Shown here one piece after another: positions 20,465-56,191 of a stretch of DNA of 64,000 nt; position 1 is the stretch's first letter; each line of letters opens with the position of its first letter. The translations under genes were made by a program, and so were the position numbers. Under the pieces are notes generated by a model that was not told the origin of the DNA, searched no databases, and saw nothing but the letters and a program-made list of their open reading frames with translations. Origin of the DNA: Dendrobates tinctorius (Eukaryota); the NCBI RefSeq assembly GCF_039654945.1, contig NW_027361726.1, positions 26,040,001-26,104,000 of the forward strand. Reading direction: 5' to 3'.

Positions 20465-20876
20465 GCGAGGAGCAGACAGCACCAATAACAGTGGAAGAGA
20501 CAGCACCGATAACAGAGCAAGTGACTGCACCGATAGCAGAGGAAGAGACTGCACCGATAACAGAGGAAGAGACTGCACCGATAACAGAGGAAAAGACAGT
20601 ACCAATAATAGAGGAAGAGACTGCACCGATATCTGGAGAAGACAAAGGGGACATCGGCATCCTGCACCAATGAAGCCAAGGAAAGCGAAGACTGCGCTGA
20701 TAATTGAGGAAGACACTGCACTGAAAATAGGAGAAGAGACTGCACCATGGTCATAGAGGAGGAGACTGCACCAATGAGGCCGAGGATAGCGGATCAGACA
20801 GCGCTGATAGAGGAAGAGACTGCACCAATGTGGCCGAGGATAGAGGAGCAGACTGCGCGGATAGAGGAAGAGACTG
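20465..20876. repeat. 24-bp minisatellite grading into a 54-bp composite unit (left part of the array)
   Basis: GAGGAAGAGACTGCACCGATAACA x~7, then GAGGCCGAGGATAGCGGAGCAGACTGCGCTGATAGAGGAAGAGACTGCACCGAT units. Confidence 0.9.
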
Positions 20877-22890
20877 TGTGGTACTCGCAGGTACGCAGGA
20901 TGCAGTGACGAGCCGGAGACAGAGCAGGGGCTAAACTTAACTTTTATAAAGTATATGGATAAAGAGTAAAGCTAACAATGGTTTTTCACGCAGGGAAGTC
21001 AGATACAAATACACATGTACACAATACTAAACAGTACGGCGGGAGACGATAATTATATGGCCACAACGCGGCCGGCTACAGGTCCTTGGACTAACTATAA
21101 ATAGAAACGAAGTGTCACTTATCGATCTCTAATGTCCTGCAGAGTTGTTGTCCAGGAGATGTCTGACCGGCACCTCAGCCGCCGGGTCCAGTCAAAGAAG
21201 AGTTGATGCAGACTGCGGGTGTTCCTACGCCCTGGTGCCAGGGAAACGATGCAGGCCCCAGGCCGGTTCCCCTCCGCTGGGGTTGCTTCGTTGGGAGGCA
21301 AGGCTGAGACGGCCGCGGGTCTCGGCATATAGGCCACAGCCGCGGTATGGAGCAGGGCAATGGTGGCCGCGGGTCTCACTGTACAAGCCGCAGCCATGGT
21401 ATGGAGCGGGGCAATGGCAGCTGTGGGTCTCGCTGGATCTCCTCCTCGTGCTGCTCGGCACCATCCTCCCTCCAGGCCAAGTAAGCCCCTGTCTCCCCTG
21501 TGTCGGATGCGCTAACTCCCTCTTGCTCTGGGATGCCTCTTAGACTCCTCCCTCCTGTCTCTCATCTCCTGTGTCTGTGGCGCCCCTGAGGCTCAGTCGC
21601 CACAGAGGTACTAAACCTTCTCCTAAGGTGTAGTGCCCCACCAGCTAGGTAAGTTGGGAACTTCTTTCCACACTCCAACACTCGCATCCCACACAACAGG
21701 ATAGTTCAGCACAACCACATTGAGGTCTCTCTCTCCTCCTAGACATTAGGAGTGCCTTGGTGGTTTCCTGCTTGGAACACTGGATGTGCTGGGAGGTGGG
21801 TGGAGTTGAAATTCATATAAAAGATGGGGAAGGTTTAGAATTACAGATCAGTGTGGAGGTCAGCCTGACGGGAGGTCAGGAGAGTCTGAGGACGGGTCTG
21901 AGAAGGAGTGCTGCAGCTGCCTCAGTGATCTGAGCCAGCTGGCATGGGAAAGGAACAGAAGGAGAAAGATGTAGAACTGCAACCTAAGCTTCCATAAGAG
22001 AGAGAAAGAACAGTGCGGAATGAAGGAGTAGGAGAACAGAGAGGAGACGTGGGTTGGAAGAGGAACCCTGCCTATAGGTTCTCAGTGCAAGGCCGGGGCC
22101 CGGTCCCCGAGGTTGTATGGACACTTATGGTTCTGCAGCAGACACCGGTGGAGTAGTTGGCTGTAAATGCATTACTCCCAACTTAGACTCTGGGCACAAC
22201 AGCAACTGAATAGAGAGCCAGGACTCCGGAGAAAGGGGTCCCCGACAGAGGCTACAGCTGTCTGCCATACGAGTAGAATTACTAGGAACATCTGACAGGA
22301 GGAACTCCAGAGTACCACGGTACTGGAGAGCTTCACACTAAAAGGCGCATTGGTGGAGTCGTTCAGGAAAGGTACATGTTGGCAGAGTGTTGGAGAGGAG
22401 AGCCCTGACTTGCTCGGGAGGTTGACTGAGTCTGTGCCCCGGAGGACACGGCATGGAAGCGGGCACCAGTGTGTACCACGAACTGTGAGTAAAGCTTTGG
22501 AACTGCAAGCCCTGGTGTCTTACATTCATTTGTGCGCTAACACCGTCAGCACCGCTACATCTGGGTACCAACATTCCTCACACCGCCTGCGCCTATTCTC
22601 ATCTATTGAAATTACACTGCCCTGGGGTTACAGCTTCACCTGTGGGGAGCAACACCATCTATGCTGCAACACACCATCAGCCCCAGAGGATCTGCACGCA
22701 GCGTTGGCTTAACATCTTGCTTGCCAAACACCACAGGTGGCGTCACGAGCTGTTCGCATAAACTATATCACAAACCCCCATTGATTTTGGCGCCCAGGGC
22801 CACGGACTGGGTCACCACTGCTGTGACACAATTCCCCCTGACACCGGCCCGGTACCGAGTACCCCATGGCCCTGGGAGGGCGACCCAACT

Positions 22891-22908
22891 TGGCATCACG
22901 AACAGGAT
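22891..22908 (+). promoter_or_regulatory. Primer-binding site, probably tRNA-Ser (second copy at 26702-26719)
   Basis: TGGCATCACGAACAGGAT 3 nt after the LTR end; one mismatch to the complement of a vertebrate tRNA-Ser(CGA) 3' end as recalled (not database-checked). Confidence 0.8.
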
Positions 22909-24940
22909 GACGAGACCCGATACCATCGGGTTCTGTGTGCCTAAGATTTGTTGGACTTTATACTTTTGAAAATGTGCAGAAGACCTGATTTGATGGACTT
23001 TAAAATGGACATTAGAAATGGCTGCTGGCGCGGAGAAGAAGGGTAGGAAGAGATGGGAGGTCCTAGAAAAAGACTACGAAGAGTATTGGGCCTTCCCTGC
23101 CTGAATTACTATGTGACAGCGACATGGCCCACCTTGTGAGGGATTCGAATACTGGCTTGGTATGGAGGCGCTGGAAGAAGACGCCGCCCCCGGAAGGAGG
23201 GGCAGAAGAAGCCAGTGGCAGGAAAGGGGCCAAGGCAGGAAGAACGCCAGTGCGCCATTTTGGAGAGTGAGGGAAGGAGGCCTGCGGAGCACGGGGAAAC
23301 GGATTTCCCTGGTGCCATAGCTGAAGGCTCCAACCTGATCCCCGGGATGAATCACCAATAGCTGGAGGACGAGATTATCCAGCTGACGCGCCGCCTGCGA
23401 CTGAGGCGAGAAGCGCTATGGACATTAAATCTGCAGCATGCTCAGGAGCGACCTACGCCTGCGGTACCCGCGACACCGGTACCCGCCGCTGCTGCACCAG
23501 ACCTTTTCCCGGCAGACCCCGTGGAGCCTGGAGCCGCTGCCATGCCACCGGCAGCATACCCTGTTCCCTCTCTGCCGCTACCACCGGAGGAATTGTACAC
23601 AGCCCAGAGAGCTGAAGTGGAGGAAGAGAAGCCCCTGCCCGGATCTGCGCGGCTGCGCAGTTCCCGCCAGCGACCCCCGCGGAGCCGAAGCTGCCATTGG
23701 CCCCACCGCCGTCCCCGGTGTCTCACCGGGCAACACCCGTTGCCACCACGTCTGCACCGGAGTGGAGACCGCACTGCCGGGAACTCCCAGGTATATACCC
23801 CGGCCCTCATAATGGGTTGATGGGGAGGTGGAGGAGGTCCCTGCTGCCAGGGGTACGGTTGGAGCCGGCACACCCGATCCAACATCTTCAGGGAAGAGGG
23901 GGGTCTGGATCGTTTTGGAACGGTGATCTCGGGATACCTTCACTGCCAAGTCCCCAGGTAATTGCTTGCCAGCGCCGACAAGCTGCAGAAGCCCTGGGAG
24001 CTCGACCTCGTACCAGGACAGCGGAACCACCTATCGAGGAGGAACAGTTGATGGGCATTGAGATGCATCATGGGTTCCCTTTGCCACAGCTTCAAGGCCC
24101 TTTAGCAAGAAACCAGAATCAGGATGAGGACAGTTCCAGTTCGGCTTCCAGAACCCCAGGAGGGGACCACAATTTGAAAATTTTCAAAATCTCGTTACCC
24201 CATGAGGGTTTGTTTGCACCGTTGTGCCTGTTTCTATTTTTGTTGTTATCTTGTTTTTCTGGTAGCACTTTTGTTGCCTAATTTTTGCAGTGGCAGCATT
24301 CTTCAATTTTGAACTACAGTGATCATGAACTTGGAGTGTATCACAAACTCTCTTGTAAATAGTTTGCACCTCTTTAGGTGCCCTCTCTTGGTTTTACATA
24401 AGGACACTTTTCGAAGATGATGTCTACCTCAAAGGACACTGCAAGAAGTCCCGGCTGGGAGCGGTGTCCAGCACTTACAAGAATCTTTGAAATGTTTTAT
24501 TGTTGATGATGTGTTTTATAAGAGTATTAGAAACTGAGAAATGGCTTTTATAGAGAATTGAGAATGTTTTGATGCAGAATTAAGAATAAAGAATTGAAAG
24601 TAGGCAGGTGACGGACCAGGTACTTGCGGTCAGCGTCTTGCGTCTAGAAGAGACAGTCAAAGTAGAAAAATGATAAAGAAACGTGTACTAGAGAAAGAAA
24701 AGCTGAATAATACTGAAGTGATAGTGAGTCACAGATAATGGCACTTAGAATGGAAAATTGCACTTTTTGACTTGAAATTTAGATAGTTAAATAAGAATTG
24801 TTTGTATCGTTCAAGAATAAGTACCTCCTATACTAGGAAGTTTAGTATAAGAATTGTTTATGCAGCATTGAAAAATTTTTTTGTATGTTCCTGTACTGTC
24901 AACTTTGTTTACCCTTGCAGCCCGCGGACGTGCTGTGCTT

Positions 24941-24952
24941 AACGGGGGGGTA
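24941..24952 (+). promoter_or_regulatory. Polypurine tract (second copy at 28751-28762)
   Basis: AACGGGGGGGTA directly before the LTR start TGTGGCG. Confidence 0.8.
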
Positions 24953-27900
24953 TGTGGCGCCACTGAGGCTCAGTCGCCACAGAGGTACTACACCTTCTCC
25001 TAAGGTGTGGTGTCCCACCACCTAGGTAACTTGGGAGCTCCTTTCCACACTCCAACACTTGCATCCCACACGACAGGGTTGTTCAGCACAACCACATTGA
25101 GGTCTCTCTCTCCTCCTAGACATTAGCAGTGCTTTGGTGGTTTCCTGCTTGGAACACTGGATGTGCTGGGAGGTGGGTGGAGTTGAGATCCATATAAAAG
25201 ATGGGGAAGGTTTAGAATTACAGATCAGTCTGGAGGTCAGCCTGACGGGAGGTCAGGCGAGAGAAGGATAGTCAGTCAGGAGAGTCTAAGGACGGGTCCG
25301 AGGAGAAGGAGTGCTGCAGCTGCCTCAGTGATCTGAGCCATCTGGCATGGGAAAAGAACAGAAGGAGAAAGACGTAGAACTGCAACCTAAGCTTCCATAA
25401 GAGAGAGAAAGAACAGAGGTACTAAACCTTCTCCTAAGGTGTAGTGCCCCACCAGCTAGGTAAGTTGGGAACTTCTTTCCACACTCCAACACTCGCATCC
25501 CACACAACAGGATAGTTCAGCACAACCACATTGAGGTCTCTCTCTCCTCCTAGACATTAGGAGTGCCTTGGTGGTTTCCTGCTTGGAACACTGGATGTGC
25601 TGGGAGGTGGGTGGAGTTGAAATTCATATAAAAGATGGGGAAGGTTTAGGATTACAGATCAGTGTGGAGGTCAGCCTGACGGGAGGTCAGGAGAGTCTGA
25701 GGACGGGTCTGAGAAGGAGTGCTGCAGCTGCCTCAGTGATCTGAGCCAGCTGGCATGGGAAAGGAACAGAAGGAGAAAGATGTAGAACTGCAACCTAAGC
25801 TTCCATAAGAGAGAGAAAGAACAGTGCGGAATGAAGGAGTAGGAGAACAGAGAGGAGACGTGGGTTGGAAGAGGAACCCTGCCTATAGGTTCTCAGTGCA
25901 AGGCCGGGGCCCGGTCCCCGAGGTTGTATGGACACTTATGGTTCTGCATCAGACACCGGTGGAGTAGTTGGCTGTAAATGCATTACTCCCAACTTAGACT
26001 CTGGGCACAACAGCAACTGAATAGAGAGCCAGGACTCCGGAGAAAGGGGTCCCCGACAGAGGCTACAGCTGTCTGCCATACGAGTAGAATTACTAGGAAC
26101 ATCTGACAGGAGGAACTCCAGAGTACCACGGTACTGGAGAGCTTCACACTAAAAGGCGCATTAGTGGAGTCGTTCAGGAAAGGTACATGTTGGCAGAGTG
26201 TTGGAGAGGAGAGCCCTGACTTGCTCGGGAGGTTGACTGAGTCTCTGCCCCGGAGGACACGGCATGGAAGCGGGCACCAGTGTGTACCACGAACTGTGAG
26301 TAAAGCTTTGGAACTGCAAGCCCTGGTGTCTTACATTCATTTGTGCGCTAACACCGTCAGCACCGCTACATCTGGGTACCAACATTCCTCACACCGCCTG
26401 CGCCTATTCTCATCTATTGAAATTACACTGCCCTGGGGTTACAGCTTCACCTGTGGGGAGCAACACCATCTATGCTGCAACACACCATCAGCCCCAGAGG
26501 ATCTGCACGCAGCGTTGGCTTAACATCTTGCTTGCCAAACACCACAGGTGGCGTCACGAGCTGTTCGCATAAACTATATCACAAACCCCCATTGATTTTG
26601 GCGCCCAGGGCCACGGACTGGGTCACCACTGCTGTGACACAATTCCCCCTGACACCGGCCCGGTACCGAGTACCCCATGGCCCTGGGAGGGCGACCCAAC
26701 TTGGCATCACGAACAGGATGACGAGACCCGATACCATCGGGTTCTGTGTGCCTAAGATTTGTTGGACTTTATACTTTTGAAAATGTGCAGAAGACCTGAT
26801 TTGATGGACTTTAAAATGGACATTAGAAATGGCTGCTGGCGCGGAGAAGAAGGGTAGGAAGAGATGGGAGGTCCTAGAAAAAGACTACGAAGAGTATTGG
26901 GCCTTCCCTGCCTGAATTACTATGTGACAGCGACATGGCCCACCCTGTGAGGGATTCGAATACTGGCTTGGTACGGAGGCGCTGGAAGAAGACGCCGCCC
27001 CCGGAAGGAGGGGCAGAAGAAGCCAGTGGCAGGAAAGGGGCCAAGGCAGGAAGAACGCCAGTGCGCCATTTTGGAGAGTGAGGGAAGGAGGCCTGCGGAG
27101 CACGGGGAAACGGATTTCCCTGGTGCCATAGCTGAAGGCTCCAACCTGATCCCCGGGATGAATCACCAATAGCTGGAGGACGAGATTATCCAGCTGACGC
27201 GCCGCCTGCGACTGAGGCGAGAAGCGCTATGGACATTAAATCTGCAGCATGCTCAGGAGCGACCTACGCCTGCGGTACCCGCGACACCGGTACCCGCCGC
27301 TGCTGCACCAGACCTTTTCCCGGCAGACCCCGTGGAGCCTGGAGCCGCTGCCATGCCACCGGCAGCATACCCTGTTCCCTCTCTGCCGCTACCACCGGAG
27401 GAATTGTACACAGCCCAGAGAGCTGAAGTGGAGGAAGAGAAGCCCCTGCCCGGATCTGCGCGGCTGCGCAGTTCCCGCCAGCGACCCCCGCGGAGCCGAA
27501 GCTGCCATTGGCCCCACCGCCGTCCCCGGTGTCTCACCGGGCAACACCCGTTGCCACCACGTCTGCACCGGAGTGGAGACCGCACTGCCGGGAACTCCCA
27601 GGTATATACCCCGGCCCTCATAATGGGTTGATGGGGAGGTGGAGGAGGTCCCTGCTGCCAGGGGTACGGTTGGAGCCGGCACACCCGATCCAACATCTTC
27701 AGGGAAGAGGGGGGTCTGGATCGTTTTGGAATGGTGATCTCGGGATACCTTCACTGCCAAGTCCCCAGGTAATTGCTTGCCAGCGCCGACAAGCTGCAGA
27801 AGCCCTGGGAGCTCGACCTCGTACCAGGACAGCGGAACCACCTATCGAGGAGGAACAGTTGATGGGCATTGAGATGCATCATGGGTTCCCTTTGCCACAG

Positions 27901-30305
27901 CTTCAAGGCCCTTTAGCAAGAAACCAGAATCAGGATGAGGACAGTTCCAGTTCGGCTTCCAGAACCCCAGGAGGGGACCACAATTTGAAAATTTTCAAAA
28001 TCTCGTTACCCCATGAGGGTTTGTTTGCACCGTTGTGCCTGTTTCTATTTTTGTTGTTATCTTGTTTTTCTGGTAGCACTTTTGTTGCCTAATTTTTGCA
28101 GTGGCAGCATTCTTCAATTTTGAACTACAGTGATCATGAACTTGGAGTGTATCACAAACTCTCTTGTAAATAGTTTGCACCTCTTTAGGTGCCCTCTCTT
28201 GGTTTTACATAAGGACACTTTTCGAAGATGATGTCTACCTCAAAGGACACTGCAAGAAGTCCCGGCTGGGAGCGGTGTCCAGCACTTACAAGAATCTTTG
28301 AAATGTTTTATTGTTGATGATGTGTTTTATAAGAGTATTAGAAACTGAGAAATGGCTTTTATAGAGAATTGAGAATGTTTTGATGCAGAATTAAGAATAA
28401 AGAATTGAAAGTAGGCAGGTGACGGACCAGGTACTTGCGGTCAGCGTCTTGCGTCTAGAAGAGACAGTCAAAGTAGAAAAATGATAAAGAAACGTGTACT
28501 AGAGAAAGAAAAGCTGAATAATACTGAAGTGATAGTGAGTCACAGATAATGGCACTTAGAATGGAAAATTGCACTTTTTGACTTGAAATTTAGATAGTTA
28601 AATAAGAATTGTTTGTATCGTTCAAGAATAAGTACCTCCTATACTAGGAAGTTTAGTATAAGAATTGTTTATGCAGCATTAAAAAAAATTTTTGTATGTT
28701 CCTGTACTGTCAACTTTGTTTACCTTGCAGCCCGCGGACGTGCTGTGCTTAACGGGGGGGTATGTGGCGCCACTGAGGCTCAGTCGCCACAGAGGTACTA
28801 CACCTTCTCCTAAGGTGTGGTGTCCCACCACCTAGGCAACTTGGGAGCTCCTTTCCACACTCCAACACTTGCATCCCACACGACAGGGTTGTTCAGCACA
28901 ACCACATTGAGGTCTCTCTCTCCTCCTAGACATTAGGAGTGCTTTGGTGGTTTCCTGCTTGGAACACTGGATGTGCTGGGAGGTGGGTGGAGTTGAGATC
29001 CATATAAAAGATGGGGAAGGTTTAGAATTACAGATCAGTCTGGAGGTCAGCCTGACGGGAGGTCAGGCGAGAGAAGGATAGTCAGTCAGGAGAGTCTAAG
29101 GACGGGTCCGAGGAGAAGGAGTGCTGCAGCTGCCTCAGTGATCTGAGCCAGCTGGCATGGGAAAAGAACAGAAGGAGAAAGACGTAGAACTGCAACCTAA
29201 GCTTCCATAAGAGAGAGAAAGAACAGTGCGGAACGAAGGAGTAGGAGAACAGAGAGGAGACATGGGTTGGAAGAGGAACCCTGCCTATAGGTTCTCAGCG
29301 CAAGGCCGGGGTCCGGTCCCCGAGGTTGTATGGACACTTATGGTTCTGCAGCAGACACTGGTGGAGTAGTTGGCTGTAAATGCATTACTCCCAACTTAGA
29401 CTCGGGGCACAACAGCAACTGAATAGAGAGCCAGGACTCCGGAGAAAGGGGTCCCTGACAGAGGCTACAGCTGTCTGCCATACGAGTAGAAATGCTAGGA
29501 ACATCTGACATGAGGAACTCCAGAGTACCACGGTACTGGAGAGCTTCACACTAAATTGCGCATTGGTGGAGTCGTTCAGGAAAGGTACATGTTGGCGGAG
29601 TGTTGGAGAGGAGAGCCCTGACTTGCCTGGGAGGTTGACTGAGTCTCTGCCCCGCAGGACACGGCATGGAAGTGGGCACCAGTGTGTACCACGGACTATG
29701 AGTATAGCTTTGGAACTGCAAGCCCTGGTGTATTCCATTCATTTGTGCGCTAACACCGTCAGCACCGCTACATTTGGGTACCAGCATTCCTCACACCGCC
29801 TGCGCCTATTCTCATCTATTGCAATTACACTGCCCTGGGGTTACAGCTTCACCTGTGGGGAGCAACACCATCTATGCTGCAACACACCATCAGCTCCAGA
29901 GGATCCGCACGCAGCGTTGGCTTAACATCTTGCTTGCCAAACACCACAGGTGGCGTCACGAACTATTCCATTAACTACATATACATTCCGCCATTGACTT
30001 GGGCGCCCAGGGCCACGGTCCTGTCACTGCTGCTGTGACACATTCCCTTGACACCGGCCTGGTACCGAGTACCCCACAGCCCTTGGAGGGCGACCCATGT
30101 CTCTCTCCTTGCCGAGTCCCTCCTGCTGGTCTCCACCGCTCATTTTATAGTTGCTACGCCCCCTTTCTTTATCCCACCCCCACGTCTCCTGATCGACTGT
30201 TTGTCCTGGCCTACAATCATTTCCCCCAAGAACGTACCCCGTGGGAACCCTGGTGACAGCCCCCATAGTTCCGGCCCGGATGCACAGCAAGCCCCTTTTC
30301 CGGGG

Positions 30306-30761
30306 CTGCGCCGATGAGGCCGAGGATAGCAGAGCAGACTGTGCTGATAGAGGAAGAGAGACTGCACCAATGAAGCTGAGGATAGTGGAGCAGACTGCGC
30401 TGATAGAGGAAGAGAATGCATTGATGAGGCCGAGGATAGCGGAGCAGACTGTGCTGATTGAGGAAAGACTGCACCGATGAAGCTGAGGATAGCAGAGCAG
30501 ACTACACTGATAGAAGAAAAGAATGCACCGATGAGGTCGAGGATAGTGGAGAGGACTGTGCTGATAGAGGACGAGACTGCACCGATGAAGCTGAGTATAG
30601 TGGAGCAGACTGCGCACCGATGAGGCAGAGGATAGTGGAGCAGACTGCACTGGTAGAGGAAGAGACTGCACTAATGAGGCCGAGGATAGCGAAGCAGACT
30701 GCGCTGATAGAGGAAGAGAATACACCGATGAGGCCGAGGATAGTGAAGCAGACTACGCTGG
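30306..30761. repeat. 54-bp minisatellite (continuation of the 20465-20876 array; last remnant at 35897-35923)
   Basis: GAGGCCGAGGATAG every 54 bp. Confidence 0.93.
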
Positions 30762-31925
30762 TGTAGGTAACAGCAGGTTCGCAGGATGCAGTGACGAGAC
30801 GCGAAACTGGTTGAACTTTGAAAAGCAAACTTTTTGTGCAACCAAACACTATTTGGAAAGAACACGACTAATCTGGCCGAGGCCGGTTACTATGGGGCTA
30901 CGGTATGGCCGTCTACGGGTCCTTATACTCTATAATGTCACTTATCCGTCCTGACATCCCTCGGCGTCTCTGTGGAAGCTGTGTTGCTGATGAAGCTGCT
31001 TTGGTGTCTTTGATAAGGCTGCTTTGGCGTCTTTGATGAGGCTGCTCTGGCGTCTTTGATGAGGCTGCTGTGGCGTCTTTGATGAGGCTGCCTTGGCATC
31101 GCAGCCGCTGGACCCAGCTACTGAAGATTTGGAGTAGTCTTCGGGCGCCCCAGCGCCCAGGAGGAGTTGCTGCCCAAGAGGCACTGATGGAGTCCTGAGA
31201 TGAAGTAAACCCCTGTTGTAACAGCGGGATTGCGCTTGTTAGCGAGTTCAATGGGACTCCTGTCCCCAAGCAGGGTTGTGTCGCAGTGCTCAAGAGTAGC
31301 AGTTTACTGGCCGCGCGCTCAGCCTGGGGCTGTGTGCAGAGCGCCTCTGTTGACGAGAAACAGGCCCCAACTGCCGATTGCAGTGGGATGAAGGCGGCTG
31401 TGAGCGGTGATAGACAGGTCGCAACCACGGGCTGATGTGAACCGGCAGCGTCCGCGGGTGGCAGCGGGCAGGCCGCAACCGCTGGCTGAAGGGGGGTGGC
31501 AGCAGCCAGGAGATGGAGCGTACAGGCCGTGGAGGGCTCGAGCTCAGCGGTAACGGCTGAGGATGACCGGGGGCAGATGATAACCCGGGATTGGGGTGAA
31601 GAGTCAGTCCCCTGTCTGCAAGCTTTGCGCCTCTTTCCTGAGGGCCACTGCATATCTACCCTCTGCTGCTGGTCTCTTCTTTGATTTGTCAGTGTCCTTC
31701 CCGCTCTCTCACGCCCCCTCCGTCTCCTGCTCCATGTCTGACGTATCACCAACTGACTCCTCTGCGCGCTCCCTGCCCCTTTTATACTCTCCCTTCCCCT
31801 TGCTGTCCTGTCACTCTCAACAGTCCACTCTCCTCCTCTGTTCCCCGGGTACTGTTTCCTTAGGAACTCAGATGGCGGTCCCCTTGTTCCGGCCCAGACA
31901 CTCTGTGGGGGTCCTCCTCCCTACA
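30762..31925 (-). mobile_element. 3' LTR ('LTR-2') of a defective Gypsy element
   Basis: TGTAGG...CCTACA inverted termini; preceded on the minus strand by PPT AGGATGGAGGAG (31926-31937); TATAAAA (minus) at 31780-31786. Confidence 0.9.
30913..31653 (-). CDS. Putative LTR-encoded Ala/Pro-rich protein (246 aa from the first in-frame ATG)
   Basis: Open frame downstream of the LTR TATA box; motif PGRWGARRLLQIFSSWVQRLRC has in-frame homologues in the two other LTRs. Confidence 0.4.
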   Translation of the reverse strand: MQWPSGKRRKACRQGTDSSPQSRVIICPRSSSAVTAELEPSTACTLHLLAAATPLQPAVAACPLPPADAAGSHQPVVATCLSPLTAAFIPLQSAVGACFSSTEALCTQPQAERAASKLLLLSTATQPCLGTGVPLNSLTSAIPLLQQGFTSSQDSISASWAATPPGRWGARRLLQIFSSWVQRLRCQGSLIKDATAASSKTPEQPHQRRQSSLIKDTKAASSATQLPQRRRGMSGRISDIIEYKDP

Positions 31926-32322
31926 CTCCTCCATCCTGTAAGCTCGCCAGTCCTCGGGCGAGGGCCTCAGTATACTTGGGCTGCTCTCCGGAGGTGTCAG
32001 TTTTCGTTGCCATAAGAACTGGTCCTGTTCGTATGGGGGGTTTGCCGGCTGTCGACCGCTCGGAGCATCTTAGTTCGACGAAGGTGGAGTCTTCTGGGGT
32101 GGTGGCCAGTGGTGGGCTAGCTGGTTCTGGCGGGCTAATTGTATCAGTTGGTTTGTCATCGAGTAGAGAGCCCCTGGTTATTGTGGGGAAGTCTTCTTCG
32201 TCGTCCGAGTCCCAGAACATGGGCAATGGTTCAGAGACCTGAGGAGCAGGTTCAGGTTGTTTCAGGTCAGTGGAAATACAGGGGCGTAGCATATTCCAAT
32301 GCACTATGTGGGTAGGCAGCGT

Positions 32323-34843
32323 TTAATCTTTCTCGTGTCGTATTTCGTAGACAGGTTCTTCAGGGTTTATACGGCGTAGGACCCGATAGGGACCCTCTTC
32401 CCAGCGTGGCTCTAATTTGTTCTGGGGACGTTGGTCTAGTACGAGTACTCGGTCTCCGCTTTGGAGGTCGGGAGATAGAGATGAACTCTTTCCTGGGTGT
32501 TCTAAGTCTTGAAGTTTGGTATTTACGATTCGATGAAGAGTTTGCACCCTGTGCCGGTGATTTCGGACCCATGATGATACCCCAGTCCAGGGCTGAGGTT
32601 CCTCTGGGTCCAACTCTACCTCCGTGATCCCCTTGCCCTCGCTTCCGAACAACAGGGAATAAGGGGTATAGCCAGTAACTCGATGTACTCGGTTGTTATA
32701 GACCCATACTAGTTCAGGGACATATTTGGGCCAATGGGCCTTCTTGTCACTCTCCAGACTACGCAAATTTGGATTAATGTCCGATTAAATCTCTCACAGG
32801 TCCCGTTTCCATGTGGGTGGTATGGCGTGGTCCGGGATTTGTCAATACCGTAGAGACGATGTAGTTCCTCCATTATTTTTCCCAAAAAACATGCTCCTTG
32901 ATCGGAATGTATCCGTTGAGGGCAGCCGTAAACTTGTATAAAGTTTCTACAAATTGCGGAGGCAGCCGACTCCGTGGTCTGGTCTTGAGTGGGGGTAACC
33001 ACAGCGAACTTAGTGAAATGGTCTACCATGACGAGGCAGTGTTCATGCCCCTGGAATGCGGGACCAATGGTCAGGTAATCCACAGTCAGAAGCTCGAGGG
33101 GCGCTGAGGTCACGATTGTTTGTACTGGGGCTCACTGTGCGGGCGGTTTAGCTAATTCGCATAGGCGACAGGTCTGGCAAGTCTCGTCCACAACAGCATG
33201 CAAGCGTGGATGGTAAATTTTCTGTTGTAACCATTGCAAGGTCTTTTGAGCTCTGAAATGAGACCCTTTTTCGTGGGCTTCTCGAGCCAGTTCGTTAAGT
33301 TGGGCTCCTGGAGTAACTACCTGCCAAATCGTCATAGATGTTGTTCGTGATGTCATTTTACGATACAATAGTCCCTTTCGGATAACCAGTCTCTCCTATT
33401 GTCGTAACATCAGTGACATGTCCTGAGTCAAAATCTGTCTTTGGGAGTCAGTGGGCAATTTGCCAGCGGTTACCCATTTCCGGAGAACCCCAATTTCTTC
33501 GTCTTCTTGCTGCTGTTGGATCCACTTATCCCGGGATTGTCCCAGCATGCTCCTTAGGGTCTCTGTGGGAGGTACTTCCTGGGCGGCAGCTGTAAGCACG
33601 GCAGCGGTGAGGGCGAACAGTATCTCTTCCCCTTCTAGTTCGTCGTCTCGACTTTTCCCTGGGGTTGTATGTCGAATCCTGGAGAGAGCATCAGGGTGTA
33701 CATTCTCGGCCCCTCTTTTATAGATAATTTTATAGTTGAATTTCGCCATCCAGGCCACCCATCTTTGTTCCAGAGCTCCCAGTTTGGTACTTTCCAAATG
33801 GGCCAGCGGGTTATTGTCGTTCCACACCACTACTTCAGAGCCCGCCAGGTACTCTGCGAACCGCTCCGTCATGGCCCACACTACTGCGAGGAGCTCGAGC
33901 TTAAAGGAGCTGTAATTGTCAGGGTTGCACTTGGAATCATGGAATGAACGGCTTCCATACGCGATCACTCTCTCCTGGCCATCTTGAACTTGTGACAACA
34001 CAGCCCCAGCCCGTGAAGACTCCCGTCAGTGTGCAGGATGAATGGTTGTGAGAAATCCGCATAAGCCAACACCGGAGCATCCGAAAGCGCAGCCTTAACG
34101 TCTTGGAAGGCCTCTTCTTGAGGTTGTCGCCACTGGATTTTTCGTCCATTTGCCCCAGCGGGAGCCCCCTTCAGCAGGTTGTGCAGGGCTCGAGCCCGGC
34201 ATGCAAAATTCTTTACGAAACGACCGTAGTATCCGGCCAACCCCAGGAAGGCCCGCACGTCTTTTATCGTCTCGGGGGTAGGCCATCCCTGAATGACAGC
34301 AACCTTTTCCCGGAACGGCCTTACGCCCTCCGCTGAGACGACATGAGCCAGATATTCAATCTGGGTGCGAAATAGATGGCATTTTTGGGGTTTTACCTTC
34401 AAACCGTACTTTTGCAGCTATCCGAGTACCTGCCCCAACTGCTTCAGTTGGTCCTCAAAAGTGGCAGCATAGATGAACATATCATCCAGGTATATCAACG
34501 TGGCCACAAAATTGAGATCTCCCAAACACCGCTCCATCAACCGCTGAAAGGTCCCCGGAGTGTTAGCCAGTCCGAACGGCATTCGATTAAACTCAAATAG
34601 CCCCATAGGAAGTATGAACGCCGTCTTAGCCCTGTCTTCTTCTGACATGGGTACCTGCCAGTACCCACTGGCCAGGTCCAAAGTAGAAAAGTACGTTGCC
34701 TTCCCCAAGGCGGACAAGGATTCTTCTATTCGGGGTGGTGGGTACGAGTCTTTGATAGTACAAGCATTCAGCTTTCGATAGTCCACGCAGAATCGTAAGG
34801 TGCCATCCTTTTTGCAGACCAACACAATAGGAGCCGCCCAGGG
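32323..34843 (-). pseudogene. pol: Gypsy pol remnant (RT, RNase H, integrase) with frameshifts and stops; gag and protease deleted
   Basis: PWAAPIVLV-KKDG...CVDYRKLN, LDLASGYWQV, YLDD (34418-34825); HTDGS and YSSFKLELLAVVWA; H-H-C-C zinc motif; IHSDQG...ERFNRTL; GPY motif. Confidence 0.95.
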
Positions 34844-34844
34844 G

Positions 34845-35896
34845 TATTTGCAGGTACGCAGGATGCAGTGACGAGTCGCGAAACAATTTGGTGCTTTCTA
34901 TTTCTATATTATTATTATTATTACTTTCTAAAATAACGTTTATAAGACTAGAGGGAACTTTCCTCAGTCTCGGCCTGATCGCCAACAGGGGTAACACGGG
35001 TTGCCCTCGCAGGAGCTATAGACAAGCAAACACAGATAGGTAGAACACGACTACTTCCGGCAATAGCCGGTCACTATAGGGACGTGGTATGGCCGACTAT
35101 GGGTCCTTAATTGTAAAGACAATTTAGCTGCCCAGACGTCCCTCGCCGTTCGGGTTGGTGGTCTTTCGGTGTAGTAGTTGCTGGGCCCAGTTGCTGAGGC
35201 GTTGATGGAGTCTTCGCGCCCTCCGGCGCACTGGTGACACTGGAGTCCCACAGGCCCCGGCGGAGTCCTTGGACAGGTGGGCCGCAGGCCCTGGCCTGGG
35301 GCAAGCGGTAGCGATGGGTGGTGGCGAATGACAGGCCACCTGCGCAGCTAGCGGCTGCGATGGGGAGTCCGCGGTCAGCAGAGGCCTGGCCCCTGCTGCA
35401 GACTGGAGCGGGACAGTGGTGGCCGCCGATGGCACGGTACTTGCCGTGGCCATGGGCGAGAGTGGGGTGGCGGCGGGTGGCAGGGAACAGGCCACAGCCG
35501 CAGGCTGAGGGGAGGCGGCGGTGGCCGCGGGCTAAGAAGATGCGGCAGCGGGTTGAACTGAGGCCGCAGTGGCCACGGGCTGGAGCGGGGCAGCATGTCT
35601 TGGCCGGTCGCCTTGGCACCGTCCCTCTGGAGTCCTCGGTGAGCGTCTTCTCTGGCACTGGTGGGTAGCTCTAGCTTCCAGTCGCTCCCACGCTCTCCTG
35701 CAGGCTCTGTCCCGGTCTGCTGACTCATCGTCCGGGGAATTCCCGCCTCCTTTATACTGGTCCCTCCCCCAGCCCATCTGTCAGTCAGAACGGTCCGTCC
35801 CCGAATTCTGTCACCCAGGGACAGTTTCCCCCGGAACCCAGATGACGGCTCCTTTGGTTCCGGCCCGGACACTCAACGGGGGCCGCTCCTCCAACA
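34845..35896 (-). mobile_element. Divergent LTR of the same family ('LTR-3'), fused directly to the start of RT
   Basis: Shared block GCAGGTACGCAGGATGCAGTGACGAG at 34850; ends ...CTCCAACA; TATAAA (minus) at 35751-35756. Confidence 0.82.
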
Positions 35897-38034
35897 CCAA
35901 GATAGTGGATCAGACTGCGTTGGTATACTGTACATAACGCTGGAGACCTGCAACCATATACCCCTGCACAGCTATGGCGACGTATAAGATCAATAACCCC
36001 TCAGATTCACCATGCGCAGGCAACCATGTCTCCCAGGATTTCTGTAATATTTGTGTTGTGAATTAAGGCGCCGTCTGACTTAATGATGTTTTTGGTGATT
36101 CCTCTGCGGATACTGGAAACCTTCGTTTCCAGCATCCGCAGAGGCAGAAACCTCAGACAGAGGCGGGAGGATTCGGGAGCGGATTCCAGCCTCCAACTAC
36201 ATAAGGGGCTGATGGTGGAATTGTGTGCCCGTCTGACCGGTGGGTCCTCCTGGTGCCATCCTCATCCTCACTACATTGATGGATTGCAGAATCTTCAGGG
36301 GCGGCCATGCTGGTTTTGGGTTTACAAAGGTTACAGATGAAGAGGGAGAAATTTCCTGCCCTCCGGATTATCAGTCATGGGGTGCTGAGCTCCATCGGAC
36401 TCGTTGTCGGGGTATATTATTTTGGGAGTGGTGTCACTTATGCCAGTGTCTGAGGCCCTGACCCCCAGTAACACCCCAGTCCGTCGGACGCTGCGGTCGA
36501 TCACTCATATATTTCAGAAATGTATCAGTCAGACACAAACAGAGAGCACAGAATGACAATTGTGCAGAAATATCCTGCAGTAAAACATATAACAGTAGTC
36601 AGCAAGTGCTGATGAAAAGATGATAACAAATACAGGGTATTTAGTCGATACATTTTTTTGCAAAAAAATGTATACCAAGCTGCTTCACCGCGTCAAGGTA
36701 ACCCTATTGAAGCAGTCCCTATCTAATGTGTTTAAAACCTGAACATGTGAACAGTGTCTAAGTGAACAGGATGAAGATAGGCCGCTTCCTAGTATGGGCA
36801 CATGGTGTAGCCAGCTCCTTATGTGCATGTCACACAAGAGAGGGGTGGGGTCTCTCAAATCATGCATAGGCACGGAAAAAACTGGATTAAAAACACATGT
36901 GACATGCACACATATGAACAAGTCAGTAGGACACTGTTCATACCACCCACTGACTCAAACACAAACAGAGAGCACAGAATGACAATTGTGCAGAAATATC
37001 CTGCAGTAAAACATATAACAGTAGTTAGCAAGTGCTGATGAAAAGATGATAACAAATACAGGGTATTTAGTCGATACTTTTTTTGCAAAAAAATGTATAC
37101 CAAGCTGCTTCACCGTGTCAAGGTAACCCTATTGAAGCAGGTGAGCGTCTTCTCTGGCACTGGTGGGTAGCTCTAGCTTCCAGTCGCTCCCATGCTCTCC
37201 TGAAGGCTCTGTCCAGGTCTGCTGACTCATCGTCCGGGGAATTCCCCGCCTCCTTTATACTGGACCCTCCCCCAGCCCATCTGTCAGTCAGAATGGTCCG
37301 TCCCCGAATTCTGTCCCCCGGGGACAGTTCCCCCGGAACCCAGATGACGGCTCCTTTGGTTCCTGCCCGGACACTCGACGGGGGGCGCTCCTCCCACACC
37401 AAGATAGTGGATCAGACTGCGTTGGTATACTGTACATAACGCTTGAGACCTGCAACCGTATATCCCTGCACAGCTATGGCGACGTATAAGATCAATAACC
37501 CCTCAGATTCACCATGCGCAGGCAACCATGTCTCCCAGGATTTCTGTAATATTTGTGTTGTGAATTAAGGCGCCGTCTGACTTAATGATGTTTTTGGCGA
37601 TTCCTCTGCGGATGCTGGAAACCTTCGTTTCCAGCATCCGCAGAGGCAGAAACCTCAGACAGAGGCGGTAGGATTCGGGAGTGGATTCCAGCCTCCAACT
37701 ACATAAGGGGCTGATGGTGGAATTGTGTGCCCGTCTGACCGGTGGGTCCTCCTGGTGCCATCCTCATCCTCACTACATTGATGGATTGCAGAATCTTCAG
37801 GGGCGGCCATGCTGGTTTTGGGTTTGCAAAGGTTACAGATGAAGAGGGAGAAATTTCCTGCCCTCCGGATTATCAGTCATGGGGTGCTGAGCTCCATCGG
37901 ACTCGTTGTCGGGGTATATTATTTTGGGAGTGGTGTCACTTATGCCAGTGTCTGAGGCCCTGAAGCCCAGTAACACCCCAGTCCGTCGGACTCTGCGGTC
38001 GATCACTCATCTATTTCAGACACGTATCAGTCAG
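35639..38034. repeat. Complex duplication A-B-C-B-A (A ~894 bp at 35639-36532 and 37141-38034; B ~183 bp at 36533-36715 and 36959-37140)
   Basis: Direct repeats at offsets 1502 and 426 with scattered substitutions. Confidence 0.92.
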
Positions 38035-38649
38035 AGCCTGATGAAGATGATGATTTCAGTCTGAGATTTCTCATCCCCGTGGTCCGGCCTCACACCCCGT
38101 ACGTCTTGGCTTCCCTATCATCTGCCACCGTCTCCATTAATCAATGGGAGCTTGCGCCGGAGCGTTCTTCTCCGGTTTTAGTCAAGCTGTTTGCTTAGTG
38201 ACTTAATTAAATCGTATTTGAACAAAAATTATCATATTTAATATTGCTTTAAATCAGCCCAAGAATCGCTCATTATTAACCGCTGCTTGGAGATTTCCTA
38301 ATGAAATGCAAGTTCATTAAGAGGAGTGATGAAACTTTCCACTGGATGTGACGGAGCTGTGGGCACCGCCGCTCAAAATGCAAATTCAACTCCACAAAAA
38401 TGTAGATAAATGATAAAAACCTGATGTGTGGTCAGAGGAGCGAAGAACGTGAAAAGTGGACATTGTAACCAGTGATGTCATAGAGGAGGTGGGATCATCA
38501 GGGGTGTCAACGTCTGTTATGTTAATAAAGTGGGTTTGGTGGTGGGGCAGCCTGGGGGTCCTCACAACAGATGTCTCATCTGTTTATTCCTTAGCATAAC
38601 TGGTGAATTTGGATTGGATCATTCCACTCCATGTTTACCCATGTCAGAA

Positions 38650-51041: not shown

Positions 51042-53789
51042 TTATATCCAGTCCTCAATTCCAGCCACCCAGTTATCATCTAGCTGCCCAGGTGTTTGGT
51101 AATCAGTCTCACTACCTTCCTTCACCAGAGGAGGGAGTTCATCAGACCTCAATGATGAAGGGAAAAATGAACTCACAACAGTACCTCCCCCTTGAGGAGG
51201 GGTCACCGAACCCTCATCCATGCCACCAGGGTGATCCGGGTGAGCCCGATGAAAGGCACGCACCAATCTTTCGGCATGAATATCAGAGGCAGAGACCCAG
51301 GAATTATCCTCCTGACCATAACCCTTCCACTTAACCAAATACTGGAGCCTCCGTCTAGCCAGACGGGAATCCAGTATCTTCTCTACCTCATATTCCATGT
51401 TACCTTCAACCAATATAGGGTCAGGAGGTGCCACCACAGGAACTACTGGTTCAACAAACCTCTTCAACAAGGACTTATGAAACACATTATGAATTTTAAA
51501 TGAGACAGGAAGAGCCAACCGAAAAGAGACCGGATTAATAATCTCCAAAATCTTGTAAGGTCCAATAAATCTAGGGTTAAACTTAGGAGAAGCCACCTTC
51601 ATAGCGATATTTTTTGATGACAACCAAACCATATCACCCACCTTAAACTGGGGACCAACGGTCCTACGCCGGTTGGAAAACCGCTGGGCCTTTTTTCTGG
51701 GAGAGAGACAACTTATCCACTACTTGGTCCCAGATCTGGTGCATTCTCTCCATCACAGTGTCAACACCTGGGCAGTCAGAAGGCTCCACCTGCCCTGAAG
51801 AAAATCGAGGGTGAAACCCAAAGTTACAAAAAAAAGGTGACATCAAAGTGGCAGAACTAGCTCTATTATTTAAAGCAAATTCGTCCAAGGGCAAAAATGA
51901 AACCCAATCATCCTGATCGGCAGAAATAAAACATCTCAAATACGACTCCAAAGTCTGGTTTGTTCTCTCCGTCTGCCCATTGGTCTGAGGGTGAAACGCA
52001 GAGGAGAAGGACAACTGAATTCCCAGCTTGGAACAGAAAGTCCTCCAAAATCTAGACACAAACTGAACTCCTCTGTCAGATACAATGTTCTCAGGAATCC
52101 CGTGCAAGCGAACCACCTGTTGCAAAAACAAGGGCACTAACTCAGAGGAAGATGGCAACTTAGGGAGTGGTACAAGATGGACCATCTTAGAGAATCTATC
52201 ACAAATAACAGTCATTCTCTGAGAGACAGGCATATCAGAGATAAAATCCATTGAAATATGGGTCCATGGCCTCCTGGGCACCGGCAAAGGCATCAACAAG
52301 CCACTAGAGCGAGAACAAGGTTTAGACCGGGAGCAAGTCCCACAGGACTGCACAAAATTCCTGACATCACGAGACAAGGCGGGCCACCAAAAAGACCGAC
52401 TCACCAGATCTCTAGTACCAAAAATACCTGGATGACCAGCCAATGTAGAGCAATGAACTTCAGACATCACTCTCTTCCTCCACTGGTCAGGAACATACAA
52501 CTTTCCACTGGGACAACGCTCAGGTTTGTCCTCCTGAAACTCTTCCAGAGCACGTCTCAAATTGGGCGAGATGGCAGAAAGAACTACCCCCTCGCCTAAG
52601 ATGGTAGCAGGCTTAGTCACAACAGGAGAATCAGAAAGGAAATTCCTAGAGAGGGCGTCTGCCTTGACATTCTTAGTGCCCGGAAGAAAAGAGACTACAA
52701 AATCAAAACGTGTGAAAAACAAGGCCCACCTAGCCTGTCTAGGATTCAAGCGCTTGGCCGACTCCAGGTAAATCAAATTCTTGTGGTCAGTAAGGACCAC
52801 GACTTGGTGTTTGGCTCCGTCCAACCAATGTCTCCACTCCTCAAATGCCCATTTCATGGCCAACAGTTCCCGATTCCCCACATCATAGTTACGTTCGGAT
52901 GGGGAGAACTTTCGGGAAAAGAAAGCACAAGGATTCATTTTAGATGTCACAGGATCTTTTTGGGACAACACCGCTCCTGCACCAATCTCAGAAGCGTCCA
53001 CATCCACCTGAAACGGGAGTGAGACATCAGGTTGCCGCAAAACCGAAGCAGAAGTGAATCTTCGCTTCAGCTACTGAAAGGAAGAAACAGCCTCCGGAGA
53101 CCAATTCAGCACATCAGCAAACTTCCTAGTCAAATCTGTCAATGGCTTGGCAATACCAGAAAAATTAGCTATAAATTTCCGATAAAAATTAGCAAAATCC
53201 AAAAACTTCTGGAGGGCCTTCAAAGAAGTGGGCTGAACCCAATCATAAATGGCCTGTACCTTGGCCGGGTCCATTTCAATAGTTGACGGAGACAAAATAA
53301 ATCCCAAAAATGAAACCCTCTGTACCCCAAAAAGGCATTTCGATCCCTTGACATACAGGGAATTCTCCCTCAAAATCCGGAACACAGTCCGAACATGTTC
53401 CACATGAGAGTCCCAATTCTTGGAGAAGATCAAAATATCATCCAAATAGATCAAACATTTATCCACAAAGTCTCGGAATATATCGTTCATGAAGCACTGG
53501 AAGACAGAAGGGGCATTAGTGAGCCCAAAAGGCATCACCAGGTACTCAAAATGTCCCTCCGGAGTATTAAACGCTGTCTTCCATTCATCCCCATGCTTAA
53601 TGTGAATAAGATTATACGCCCCCTGAGGTAAAGCTTGGTAAACCAGCAAGCACCTTTAACTTTGGAGAATAGATCAGAAATCAGGGGTAACGGATACTGA
53701 TATTTAACAGTAATTTTGTTGAGGGCACGATAGTCAATACAAGGCCTTAATGAACCATCCTTTTTAGCCACGAAAAAAAAACCCAGCAC
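51042..53789 (-). pseudogene. pol: pol (RT, RNase H, integrase, chromodomain) broken by frameshifts and stops
   Basis: [66 protein letters not shown], chromodomain YEVEKILDSR...YLVKWKGY...NSW. Confidence 0.95.
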
Positions 53790-55281
53790 CTAATGGTGAA
53801 GAGGATGGTCTAATATGACCCTTCTCCAATGCCTCCTTAATATAGGATCGCATAGCCTCGTGCTCGGGTACAGATAAATTGAAAAGCTGACCCTTGGGGA
53901 ATTTACACCCCGGGTTCAGCTCAATTGCACAGTCATAACTCCTATGAGGAGGCAAAGACGCAGACTCATTCTCACTAAATACATCATAAAAGTCAGCCAA
54001 ATAGTCAGGAACATCATGCGACTGGGGAGAGGTGGAGAAAACAGGAGCATCACTAAGGGCACACCGACAACCCCAACTCACCACAGACAAAGATTTCCAA
54101 TCCAGAACTGGATTATGGATTTGCAACCAGGGAAACCCCAGAACAATGGTATCATGCAAATTATGCAACACCAAAAATCTGCAATTTTCTTGATGGTCTG
54201 GGGCGACCCGCATTACCACCTGGGTCCAAAACTGAGGTTTATTCTTCGCCAAAGGAGTAGCATCAATCCCCCTCAAAGGGATAGGCGTCTGCAGAGGTGT
54301 CATAGGAAATCCACAATGTTTAGCAAAATCCAAGTCCATCAGGTTCAGAGCTGCTCCTGAATCCACAAAAGCCTTGGCGGAAAACGTGGACAGGGAGCAG
54401 ATCAGAGTAATTGCCAGAAGAAACTTAGGTTGAACACCACCCACAGAAAACCTGTGTACACAACGTTTCTCTCGTTTAGGGCAGACAGAAATAATATGCG
54501 AGGCATCTCCACAAAAAAAACACAGCTTATTATGCCTTCTGAACTCCTGACGTTGCACCCTAGACAAAACTCTATCACATTGCATAGGTTCAGACATTTG
54601 TTCAACAGGTGGCAACATCTCTCGTGTAGTTTTGCGTTCACGTAAACGCCGATCCACCTGAATGGCTAATAACATAGAATCGTCAAGACCAGAGGGAACA
54701 GGAAATCCCACCATAGTACCTTTTACAGTTTCTGACAAACCCTTCCGAAAGAGGGCTGCCAAGGCACCATCATTCCAGGTAGTAAGGACCGCCCACTTTC
54801 GGAATTTTTGACAGTACAACTCTGCCGAATACCGACCCTGGCTTAATGCCAACAGGGTCTTTTCAGCCTGATCAATACCATTAGGTTCATCATACAACAA
54901 CCCCAAGGCTTGAAAAAATGCGTTCACATTATTCAGAATAGGATCATCAGGTTTCAAAGAAAACGCCCAATCCTGGGGATCGCCGCGCAGCAAAGAGATG
55001 ACAATTTTAATCTGCTGCGCGGAGTTCCCAGACGAGTTAGGCTTCAAGGCAAAAAATAATTTACAATTATTCTTGAAATTCAAGAATTTACACCGATCCC
55101 CAAAAAACACATCTGGAGTAGGAATCTTTGGTTCAGCAGCATGTGAATGAGCAAGATAGGCGGAAATTCCCCGCACTTCAGCAGCGAGCTGCTCCACACG
55201 ATCAGACAATTGCTTCATCTCCATTGAGAGAAAAATTCCCCCTATGGCCTCAGAGATATAGAGCAAAAAATAGGCACACAC
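53764..55281 (-). CDS. gag: Gag plus aspartic protease of the sushi-type element (frameshifts into RT)
   Basis: [14 protein letters not shown] gag region, CCHC knuckle [14 protein letters not shown], protease [19 protein letters not shown]. Confidence 0.9.
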
Positions 55282-55358
55282 AAAAAAAAAATTCTGACAC
55301 TTTTTTCTTTTTTTTTTACAATTCTCTCCTACTATTGAGTACCTTAGGATCTGCGGTA

Positions 55359-55370
55359 TGGCTGGTGATT
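55359..55370 (-). promoter_or_regulatory. Self-priming PBS (AATCACCAGCCA), complementary to the predicted transcript 5' end at 56020-56031
   Basis: 12/12 complement of a site in the 5' LTR lying ~25 nt downstream of TATAA (56053-56057); no TGG-type tRNA PBS. Confidence 0.85.
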
Positions 55371-56191
55371 CTGTTATGATGAGTCACCGAAGGAGGAAAA
55401 AACAAAATACCAGCTAAGTCCAGAAAAACCGGAGAGGTTGGCAGCTATCGGATTGCAGACCCCTGAACCTATCCACAACAACTAGCAGTAGCCGTGGGGG
55501 GTTCCTACGGTGCCCTAGACCCCTCAAACACAGCCGGAGAGCTAAATAGCCTAAAGACAGAAAGGGGAAAAACTAAACTGCCCCAGAGCAGACCCCAAAG
55601 CAATAGGCAGCCCCCAACATATAATGACGGTGAAGCAAGATGAAAACACTAACACAGATAGAAAGATAGGTTGAGCAAATGATGGGGCCCAAGCTAACTA
55701 CATAGGACAGGATAGGAAAGCTGCTGTCTGCCATCCGCAAAAACCCTATCAAATTGAGCCAACCGACTGATAGGAAAAAAAGGCCCTGAAGACGCTAGGC
55801 TTCAAAAGACTATATCAGCACTCAGGTATATTCTGAAGACAGAGCAAAAGATCAACAGATCAGAGACAAAAGTGGAATTCAGCTCACCCCCGGCCGCGGA
55901 TGGCAGAACTCCCAAAAAACAAGGCAGAACAAAAACAAAACCGAATAGTACTAAGCAGAGCAGAAAAACTTAGCTTTGAGATGCAGGGATCAGACTGGTC
56001 TCCAAGAATCCAGCAGGAAAATCACCAGCCAGGAAGAAGGGCGTCGGCAGCCTTATATCCAGTCCTCAATTCCAGCCACCCAGTTATCATCTAGCTGCCC
56101 AGGTGTTTGGTAATCAGTCTCACTACCTTCCTTCACCAGAGGAGGGAGTTCATCAGACCTCAATGATGAAGGGAAAAATGAACTCACAACA

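Follow-up and report, generated by a model that had tools for sequence, protein, structure and literature searches.

A reading frame conserved in Gypsy long terminal repeats of Dendrobates tinctorius is a predicted continuation of pol

Background

Is the reading frame that recurs in three divergent Gypsy long terminal repeats (LTRs) of Dendrobates tinctorius a small gene of its own, or the end of a larger one? The question is raised by a window of 64,000 nucleotides (nt; NCBI RefSeq assembly GCF_039654945.1, contig NW_027361726.1, positions 26,040,001 to 26,104,000 of the forward strand) from the 6.36-Gb host genome. All coordinates given below are positions in this window, and all LTR features lie on its minus strand. 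An earlier note on this DNA had described LTR-1, LTR-2 and LTR-3, each with a TATA box, an Ala/Pro-rich repeat region and an in-frame block of 22 codons, and had proposed an accessory protein encoded downstream of the LTR promoter, such that even a solo LTR could act as a mini-gene. Its descriptive part is borne out: the three blocks lie where it placed them and translate as it said, each LTR has a TATAAA, the repeat period is 54 in LTR-1 and 23 in the LTR-2 tail, and the LTRs are identified as such by TG...CA ends, by 4-bp target duplications on solo copies and by a primer-binding site (PBS) and polypurine tract (PPT) on others. A conserved frame inside the LTR also exists. What the note overlooked is that this frame starts at the first LTR base and appears to continue pol.

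Element family and sampling

Thirty loci were taken per window LTR, together with 80 element-length stretches and 50 junction loci, making a small, motif-selected sample. The exact pattern joining the unique 5' region (U5) to the PBS has 833 matches in the genome, and the exact junction of PPT and LTR start has 1825 matches genome-wide. The 238 LTRs obtained fall into nine clusters of at least three members, plus pairs and singles; F1, F2 and F3 are the clusters of window LTR-1, LTR-2 and LTR-3, respectively, three of at least eight related Gypsy LTR families. The block is carried by 179 of the 238 LTRs, being present in F1, F2, F3, Fb, Fc and Fe and absent from F4, Fa and Fd.

The elements have the pol order of Ty3/Gypsy, reverse transcriptase (RT), RNase H and integrase (P0002: Pfam RVT_1 at 285-444, RNase H at 514-645, H2C2 at 790-843 and rve at 857-953), and the structural marks of that class (paired LTRs with TG...CA ends, PBS, PPT and target duplication). 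Both of the Gags read from the ATG at the PBS have the conserved domain zf-CCHC. Elements with a PNMA-like Gag share with these the CCHC-knuckle Gag, the pol order and the 4-bp target duplication, but the PNMA match is weak (E-value: 0.038, below the cut-off, in one of the two Gags), so the clade is left unassigned. Barthez is the clade name for Gypsy elements with such a Gag, and the primer here would be tRNA-Ser.

The pol frame runs on into the 3' LTR

Where a copy has internal sequence upstream of the LTR, its integrase C-terminus meets no stop before the PPT and passes into the first LTR codon. About 50 codons before the LTR lies a basic integrase motif, which shares the frame of LTR base 1 at 42 of the 50 sampled PPT/LTR junctions. 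The first column-majority stop in the base-1 frame comes at LTR nt 805 in F3 (77 copies), 1012 in F2 (32 copies) and 826 in Fb (8 copies), and at nt 529 and 523 in the block-less families F4 (26 copies) and Fa (8 copies); in all five families both other frames meet stops sooner. In block-bearing families the tail frame stays open until about 130-180 nt before a downstream TATAAA. The features of LTR-2 and the adjoining pol are as follows.

30762-31925, minus strand: LTR-2, the 3' LTR of a family-F2 Gypsy element, carrying the pol-frame tail
31926-34845, minus strand: decayed pol (RT, RNase H, integrase), F2-type throughout, adjoining LTR-2 upstream
32041-32064, minus strand: basic motif at the C-terminus of integrase; related copies have it in the frame of LTR base 1
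31926-31937, minus strand: polypurine tract, itself within the pol frame
31781-31786, minus strand: TATAAA of LTR-2, the predicted promoter, inside the frame
31753-31759, minus strand: predicted initiator (Inr)-like motif accompanying the TATAAA
31096-31161, minus strand: 22-codon block of LTR-2, a predicted amphipathic helix
30988-31097, minus strand: 23-bp tandem array after the block; the last F2-tail residues vary between copies
30913-30915, minus strand: stop of the block frame
30781-30796, minus strand: U5 motif of LTR-2 (also 34858-34873 and 20895-20910)

The window pol matches Pfam RVT_1 (E-value: 2.6e-25), and F2 copies are nearest to it in four of four segments. Its link to the LTR frame is masked by decay, namely one-base deletions near 31886, which interrupts the tail frame of LTR-2, and near 35744, and a short pol-end deletion near 32035. 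A further deletion, of 72 bases near 30835, takes out the downstream TATAAA of LTR-2.

Intact natural copies, which the earlier note had proposed to look for, were found outside family F1: in 16 of the 179 LTRs with the block, the frame runs from base 1 through the block without a stop. Five of these 16 (L055, L124, L127, L202 and L230) also have the in-frame integrase motif upstream, and their frame is open from the integrase C-terminus through the block to the stop. One F4 copy has an open pol frame of 1401 codons, 151 of them inside the 3' LTR. Dinucleotide shuffles of seven natural copies, which had been picked as open, gave an equally long stop-free frame in 0-10 of 2000 trials each. The LTR frame is thus read, from sequence comparison, as a continuation of pol that would add 170-340 codons, and not as a stand-alone LTR gene. 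Read-through of a UAG at the LTR start was rejected as an explanation: that TAG is out of frame in most copies, and in the window it is in the block frame only via a private deletion.

Selection on the frame

Judged by insertions and deletions (indels), the openness of the frame does appear to be under selection. The earlier note had suggested examining indel lengths modulo 3, and fixed frame-shifting indels proved to be rare inside the frame and common after the stop: at lineage level, F3 has 2 non-triplet indels in 849 frame columns and 8 in the 260 columns after the stop (p 0.0003), and F2/Fb/3h/Fc have 2 in 1015 and 7 in 254 (p 0.0003). The corresponding counts for F4b/Fa/Fd are 1 in 540 and 28 in 816, with a poorly aligned repeat region. 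These counts use up to 7-9 copies per lineage and a looser flank rule, and lineage 3h is entered twice. Ten of 15 lineages, and four of the five with at most 10 ambiguous columns (765, 717, 741 and 696; Fc 749), have a number of bases divisible by three between LTR start and block. The period of tandem arrays is divisible by three in 87 of 104 arrays before the block or stop and in 6 of 84 after it.

Constraint on the amino acids of the tail appears weak. The ratio of nonsynonymous to synonymous substitution rates (dN/dS) is about 0.6-0.9 for the tail in most tests, 0.4-0.6 for the block and below 0.1 for the RT and integrase core. Subfamily-fixed changes number 0 nonsynonymous and 21 synonymous in RT and 1 and 22 in the integrase core, and give a dN/dS of 0.78 in F3 (p 0.048) and 0.59 in F1 (p 0.10) for the LTR frame; shared variants across all families give 0.09 for RT, and the final 60 codons ahead of the LTR give 0.57. 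The synonymous excess that had been noticed in the block is present to some degree. Its dN/dS is 0.42 in F3 (p 0.043) and 0.61 across 15 lineages (p 0.055), five residues are invariant, and 24 of 53 changes in the 15 lineages are at third positions (p 0.047). All p values for constraint are uncorrected for multiple tests. Whole-frame values near 1, the outcome that the earlier note had held against a protein, do occur in several tests, and those of the block are lower.

Predicted product and homologue searches

A disordered Ala/Pro tract with a basic amphipathic helix had been proposed, and structure prediction agrees with this. AlphaFold models of 12 natural open frames have a mean pLDDT (predicted local distance difference test) of 46, with confident helices only at 22-41 (before the LTR) and 302-330 (over the block) and low confidence in the remaining tail. 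The hydrophobic moment of the block is above 97% of shuffles in four of five copies.

The tail has no homologue among long proteins (0 of 8000 scored candidates), no usable match in the ESM Atlas and no Pfam family. Three weak profile matches among 1.84 billion representatives involved Ala/Pro repeats only and were dismissed. One of 958 candidates matched a query with the integrase C-terminus, a Gypsy Pol (P0003) that ends just past the basic motif and may be cut by the contig end. Another protein, P0006, has an integrase SH3-like end, then 9-residue Ala/Pro repeats much like those of the tail and then an Ulp1-type protease domain; from its sequence, this likeness is probably convergent low complexity.

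Loss of the block and the main rival explanation

Several observations weigh against the model proposed below. Earlier majority stops are found in F1 (nt 346) and Fc (nt 559), and in F1, whose copies are old and vary in repeat number, several copies are in phase with one to three stops but none of the 22 has an unbroken frame between base 1 and the block. The block is absent from F4, Fa and Fd (0 of 47 LTRs), and in Fc it is out of frame via a shared 16-base deletion before it. The indel test is non-significant in F4 alone (p 0.14) and in F1 (p 0.10), the triplet arrays descend from a few ancestral units (27/54 and 21 bp) and so are not independent, and single decayed copies show random phase. 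The block frame of F3 shows no shortage of subfamily-fixed stops (4 of 211 changes) relative to the other two frames (2 of 203 and 7 of 209). The dN/dS of the LTR frame exceeds 1 in two families (F4, 1.66; F2 shared variants, 1.78), and in 19 LTR pairs it is 0.89 for pre-insertion changes (common to both LTRs of an element) and 0.84 for post-insertion changes (in one LTR; p 0.72). The block p values are marginal. Finally, the upstream TATAAA, at LTR nt 131-171, is exact in only 14 of 22 lineages.

In midpoint-rooted RT and integrase trees, which have no outgroup and in which Fd and F1 are unlabelled, F4 and Fa are nested inside the block-bearing families, beside F2 and Fc. Similarity of LTR pairs is highest in F4 (89-98%, 11 elements; F3 84-95%, 17 elements). 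This nesting and similarity make it likely that the helix was lost in a derived, younger clade that went on spreading. Changes in the RT of these copies are synonymous (0 nonsynonymous, 6 synonymous). Since it was lost in one clade and is out of frame in one lineage, the block would be dispensable. The GC content of the flanks is 0.43 for 97 block-bearing and 0.45 for 22 block-less copies (p 0.22), and tRNA genes were found in none of 131 flanks.

The main rival explanation is that only the openness of the pol-continuing frame matters. The stop would have been moved towards the poly(A) site, shortening a 3' untranslated region to which the long R region would otherwise give about 1 kb, and so avoiding decay, with the block kept as DNA or RNA or by descent and the peptide inert. 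In its favour are a tail dN/dS near 1, the loss or displacement of the block in multi-copy lineages and the invariant block residues that Fc retains out of frame. The motif just before the block points the same way. It is single in F2, F3, Fb and Fc and amplified about 3-14 times, regardless of frame, in F4, Fa and Fd, where it forms a 34-35-bp array after the earlier stop (e.g. L185 and L209), and it is likely to be a cis element. On the other hand, the third-position excess in the block is restricted to the pol frame, RNA folding of the block region is ordinary in eight of eight copies (z from -1.6 to 0.4, against a crude shuffle), and the younger clade of F4, Fa and Fd leaves 560-700 nt between the stop and the downstream ATAAA. 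We consider this explanation unlikely.

Start codons and signals in the LTR

Downstream of the predicted start of transcription, ATG is the rarest of the 64 triplets in 221 LTRs (630 observed, 1830 expected, ratio 0.34). The control ratios are 1.18 for CAT, 0.88 for the pol region and 0.57 for the unique 3' region (U3), such that the border is not sharp. An earlier tally of ATG and CAT (19 and 184) was set aside because in 4 of 22 lineages it took in no more than the last 40 nt, and because 12 of the 19 came from a two-copy group. The rarest triplets after ATG in the repeat region (R) and U5 of these 221 LTRs are GGT (second rarest), GAT, TAG and TGA; the rarity of GGT may reflect splice-donor avoidance. 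A splice-donor look-alike motif is present at the frame end in LTR-1 and LTR-2.

A second ATAAA, about 70 nt from the LTR end, is found in 22 of 22 lineages and is likely to be the poly(A) signal. The borders of U3, R and U5 need RNA data, according to one published source (PMC3601003). If the second ATAAA were instead the promoter, the reading of the frame as a Pol tail would stand, but the purge of AUG would lack an explanation.

The gag ATG overlaps the PBS end in 79 of 80 elements (the search pattern fixes its first two letters), and the frame from this ATG reaches the zinc knuckle. In four of four folded 5' LTR/PBS junctions (L184, L127, L141 and L138), pairing is predicted between 12 bp of U5 and the end of the PBS together with the gag ATG, which explains the motif that the earlier note had put forward as a search tag. 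The folding suggests a switch between primer binding and gag translation.

These signals bear on the accessory gene of the earlier note, in which the LTR promoter and an AUG of its own would make a mini-gene of each solo LTR. Most of the frame does lie downstream of a TATA box and an Inr-like motif, four of six copies of lineage 3h have an in-frame ATG, and contigs from four sequencing runs, guessed to be of RNA, cover the LTR, in X1 to a greater depth than pol, although depth cannot rank the parts and coverage is no proof of transcription. However, 3h and one two-copy group are the only ones of 22 lineages with a majority in-frame ATG between TATA box and stop. The candidate start codons of the window are decay products or lie upstream of the TATA box: LTR-3's ATG at 35775-35777 is upstream of it and in the block frame only through a private one-base deletion near 35744, and the in-frame ATGs at 31651-31653 in LTR-2 and 35451-35453 in LTR-3 occur in only 4 of 32 and 9 of 77 family copies, respectively. 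Without a conserved start, with AUG depleted after the TATA box and with a frame that extends open beyond that box into pol, a separate accessory gene is unsupported, and we regard it as very improbable.

It is just as improbable that the tail also exists separately, as a small protein acting by itself, made through initiation at a non-AUG codon of the 5' LTR, splicing from gag or protease cleavage from integrase: protease release of a C-terminal peptide fits polyprotein processing in general, but GGT is scarce in the leader and no recurrent canonical splice joint into the LTR was found among the joints listed from the four runs guessed to be RNA, which is a weak test.

Proposed model

The tail is probably an LTR-encoded continuation of pol, translated from the 3' LTR, 170-340 residues long, mostly disordered and helix-ended in most families. 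The proposed model is as follows. Pol, which has no stop before the LTR, enters the 3' LTR in the frame of its first base, and a ribosome finishing pol would have to translate the tail if the RNA ends near the downstream TATAAA. The product would be a mostly disordered extension of integrase, ending in most families in a short basic helix predicted to be amphipathic. In the 5' LTR, the same DNA would serve as promoter and as an AUG-purged leader of 0.85-1 kb. Because this leader is poor in AUG, scanning would reach the gag AUG at the PBS, and 5' and solo copies would yield no protein. More tentatively, and with some doubt on our part, the helix, carried on a flexible linker, could serve as a motif for docking to a protein of the host or of the element, by analogy with what has been proposed for the plant CR motif.

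Other features of the window

34845-35896, minus strand: LTR-3, family F3, its 3' end fused to the RT of the F2 element
35751-35756, minus strand: TATAAA of LTR-3
35169-35234, minus strand: block of LTR-3
35124-35126, minus strand: stop of the LTR-3 block frame
34939-34944, minus strand: second TATAAA of LTR-3
20877-21575, minus strand: 3' part of LTR-1, family F1
21310-21435, minus strand: 54-bp array of LTR-1
21170-21235, minus strand: block of LTR-1
21119-21121, minus strand: stop of the LTR-1 block frame
20943-20948, minus strand: second TATAAA of LTR-1
30102-30311, minus strand: 5' part of LTR-1, without about its first 12 bases, with TATAAA at 30144-30149
21576-30097, plus strand: a different LTR element splitting LTR-1, with three LTRs in tandem and TG...CA ends

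The element that splits LTR-1 is flanked by a 4-bp target duplication (21572-21575 and 30098-30101). It is unrelated to the Gypsy copies, with three 1.3-kb LTRs, two internal parts that are 99.6% identical over 3.8 kb and short open reading frames (ORFs) only, and is probably non-autonomous. The F3 LTR is joined directly to F2 RT at 34845-34850, where PBS, gag and protease are absent and a short sequence is shared at the junction. The segment 35638-36533, which takes in the first 260 bases of LTR-3, has a 97% duplicate at 37140-38035. A 54-bp satellite (20467-20876 and 30306-30762) surrounds LTR-1 and the LTR-2 end, and other copies lie outside satellite; targeting to it was ruled out, as the flanks of solo copies elsewhere are unrelated. 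Positions 51045-55383 hold another Gypsy element of a different kind, on the minus strand, whose gag and pol ORFs are long. Rfam gave no matches in 20500-38500, and the whole window has no tRNA genes.

Relation to known systems and significance

In MMTV (mouse mammary tumour virus) sag and HIV (human immunodeficiency virus) nef, the coding sequence overlaps the 3' LTR and is hence duplicated in the 5' LTR. Each is a distinct ORF that has a start of its own and is expressed from a spliced or internal mRNA. The frame described here shares the overlap, but has no conserved start and continues pol. The closest precedent is group A of the plant centromeric retrotransposons (CRM), which is defined by a pol that reaches into the 3' LTR and by a terminal motif, group B being without the motif (Neumann et al. 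2011, PMC3059260; PMC5818461; PMC3605345). The likeness is one of layout, with pol entering the 3' LTR here too, and does not imply membership. CRM elements are plant chromoviruses with a CR motif, whereas the host here is an animal, Pfam finds no chromodomain in P0002 or P0001, and the tail runs across the predicted promoter and through the greater part of a predicted long R. The Beta vulgaris chromoviruses Beetle7, Bingo1-4 and Bingo7 are described as having a gag-pol ORF whose end lies inside the 3' LTR in some families and ahead of it in the rest (PMC3605345); these too differ in being plant elements with a chromodomain or CR motif. No report of this layout in vertebrate Gypsy elements was found among the listings of full-text literature searches, most subscription papers and Repbase lying outside the search. 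By this analogy, the layout would be extended to an animal lineage.

Annotation usually treats LTRs as non-coding and places the end of pol before the PPT; here, up to a fifth of Pol would be LTR-derived. Thousands of solo LTRs hold a long, gene-like frame without a start. The LTR would be under a double constraint, with the frame kept for the 3' copy and AUG removed for the 5' copy. As helix-bearing and helix-less families are found in one genome, the role of the helix is open to comparison. A broader proposal, which we find rather unlikely, is that a Gypsy clade of animals, outside the chromoviruses, arrived independently at a helix for integrase targeting or host binding that is encoded deep in the R region of its LTR, and that one daughter clade dropped it. 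If this is true, one kilobase of DNA would be promoter, AUG-free leader and protein tail at once, and the two kinds of family would allow insertion behaviour to be compared, as a natural experiment, between elements that have the helix and elements that lack it.

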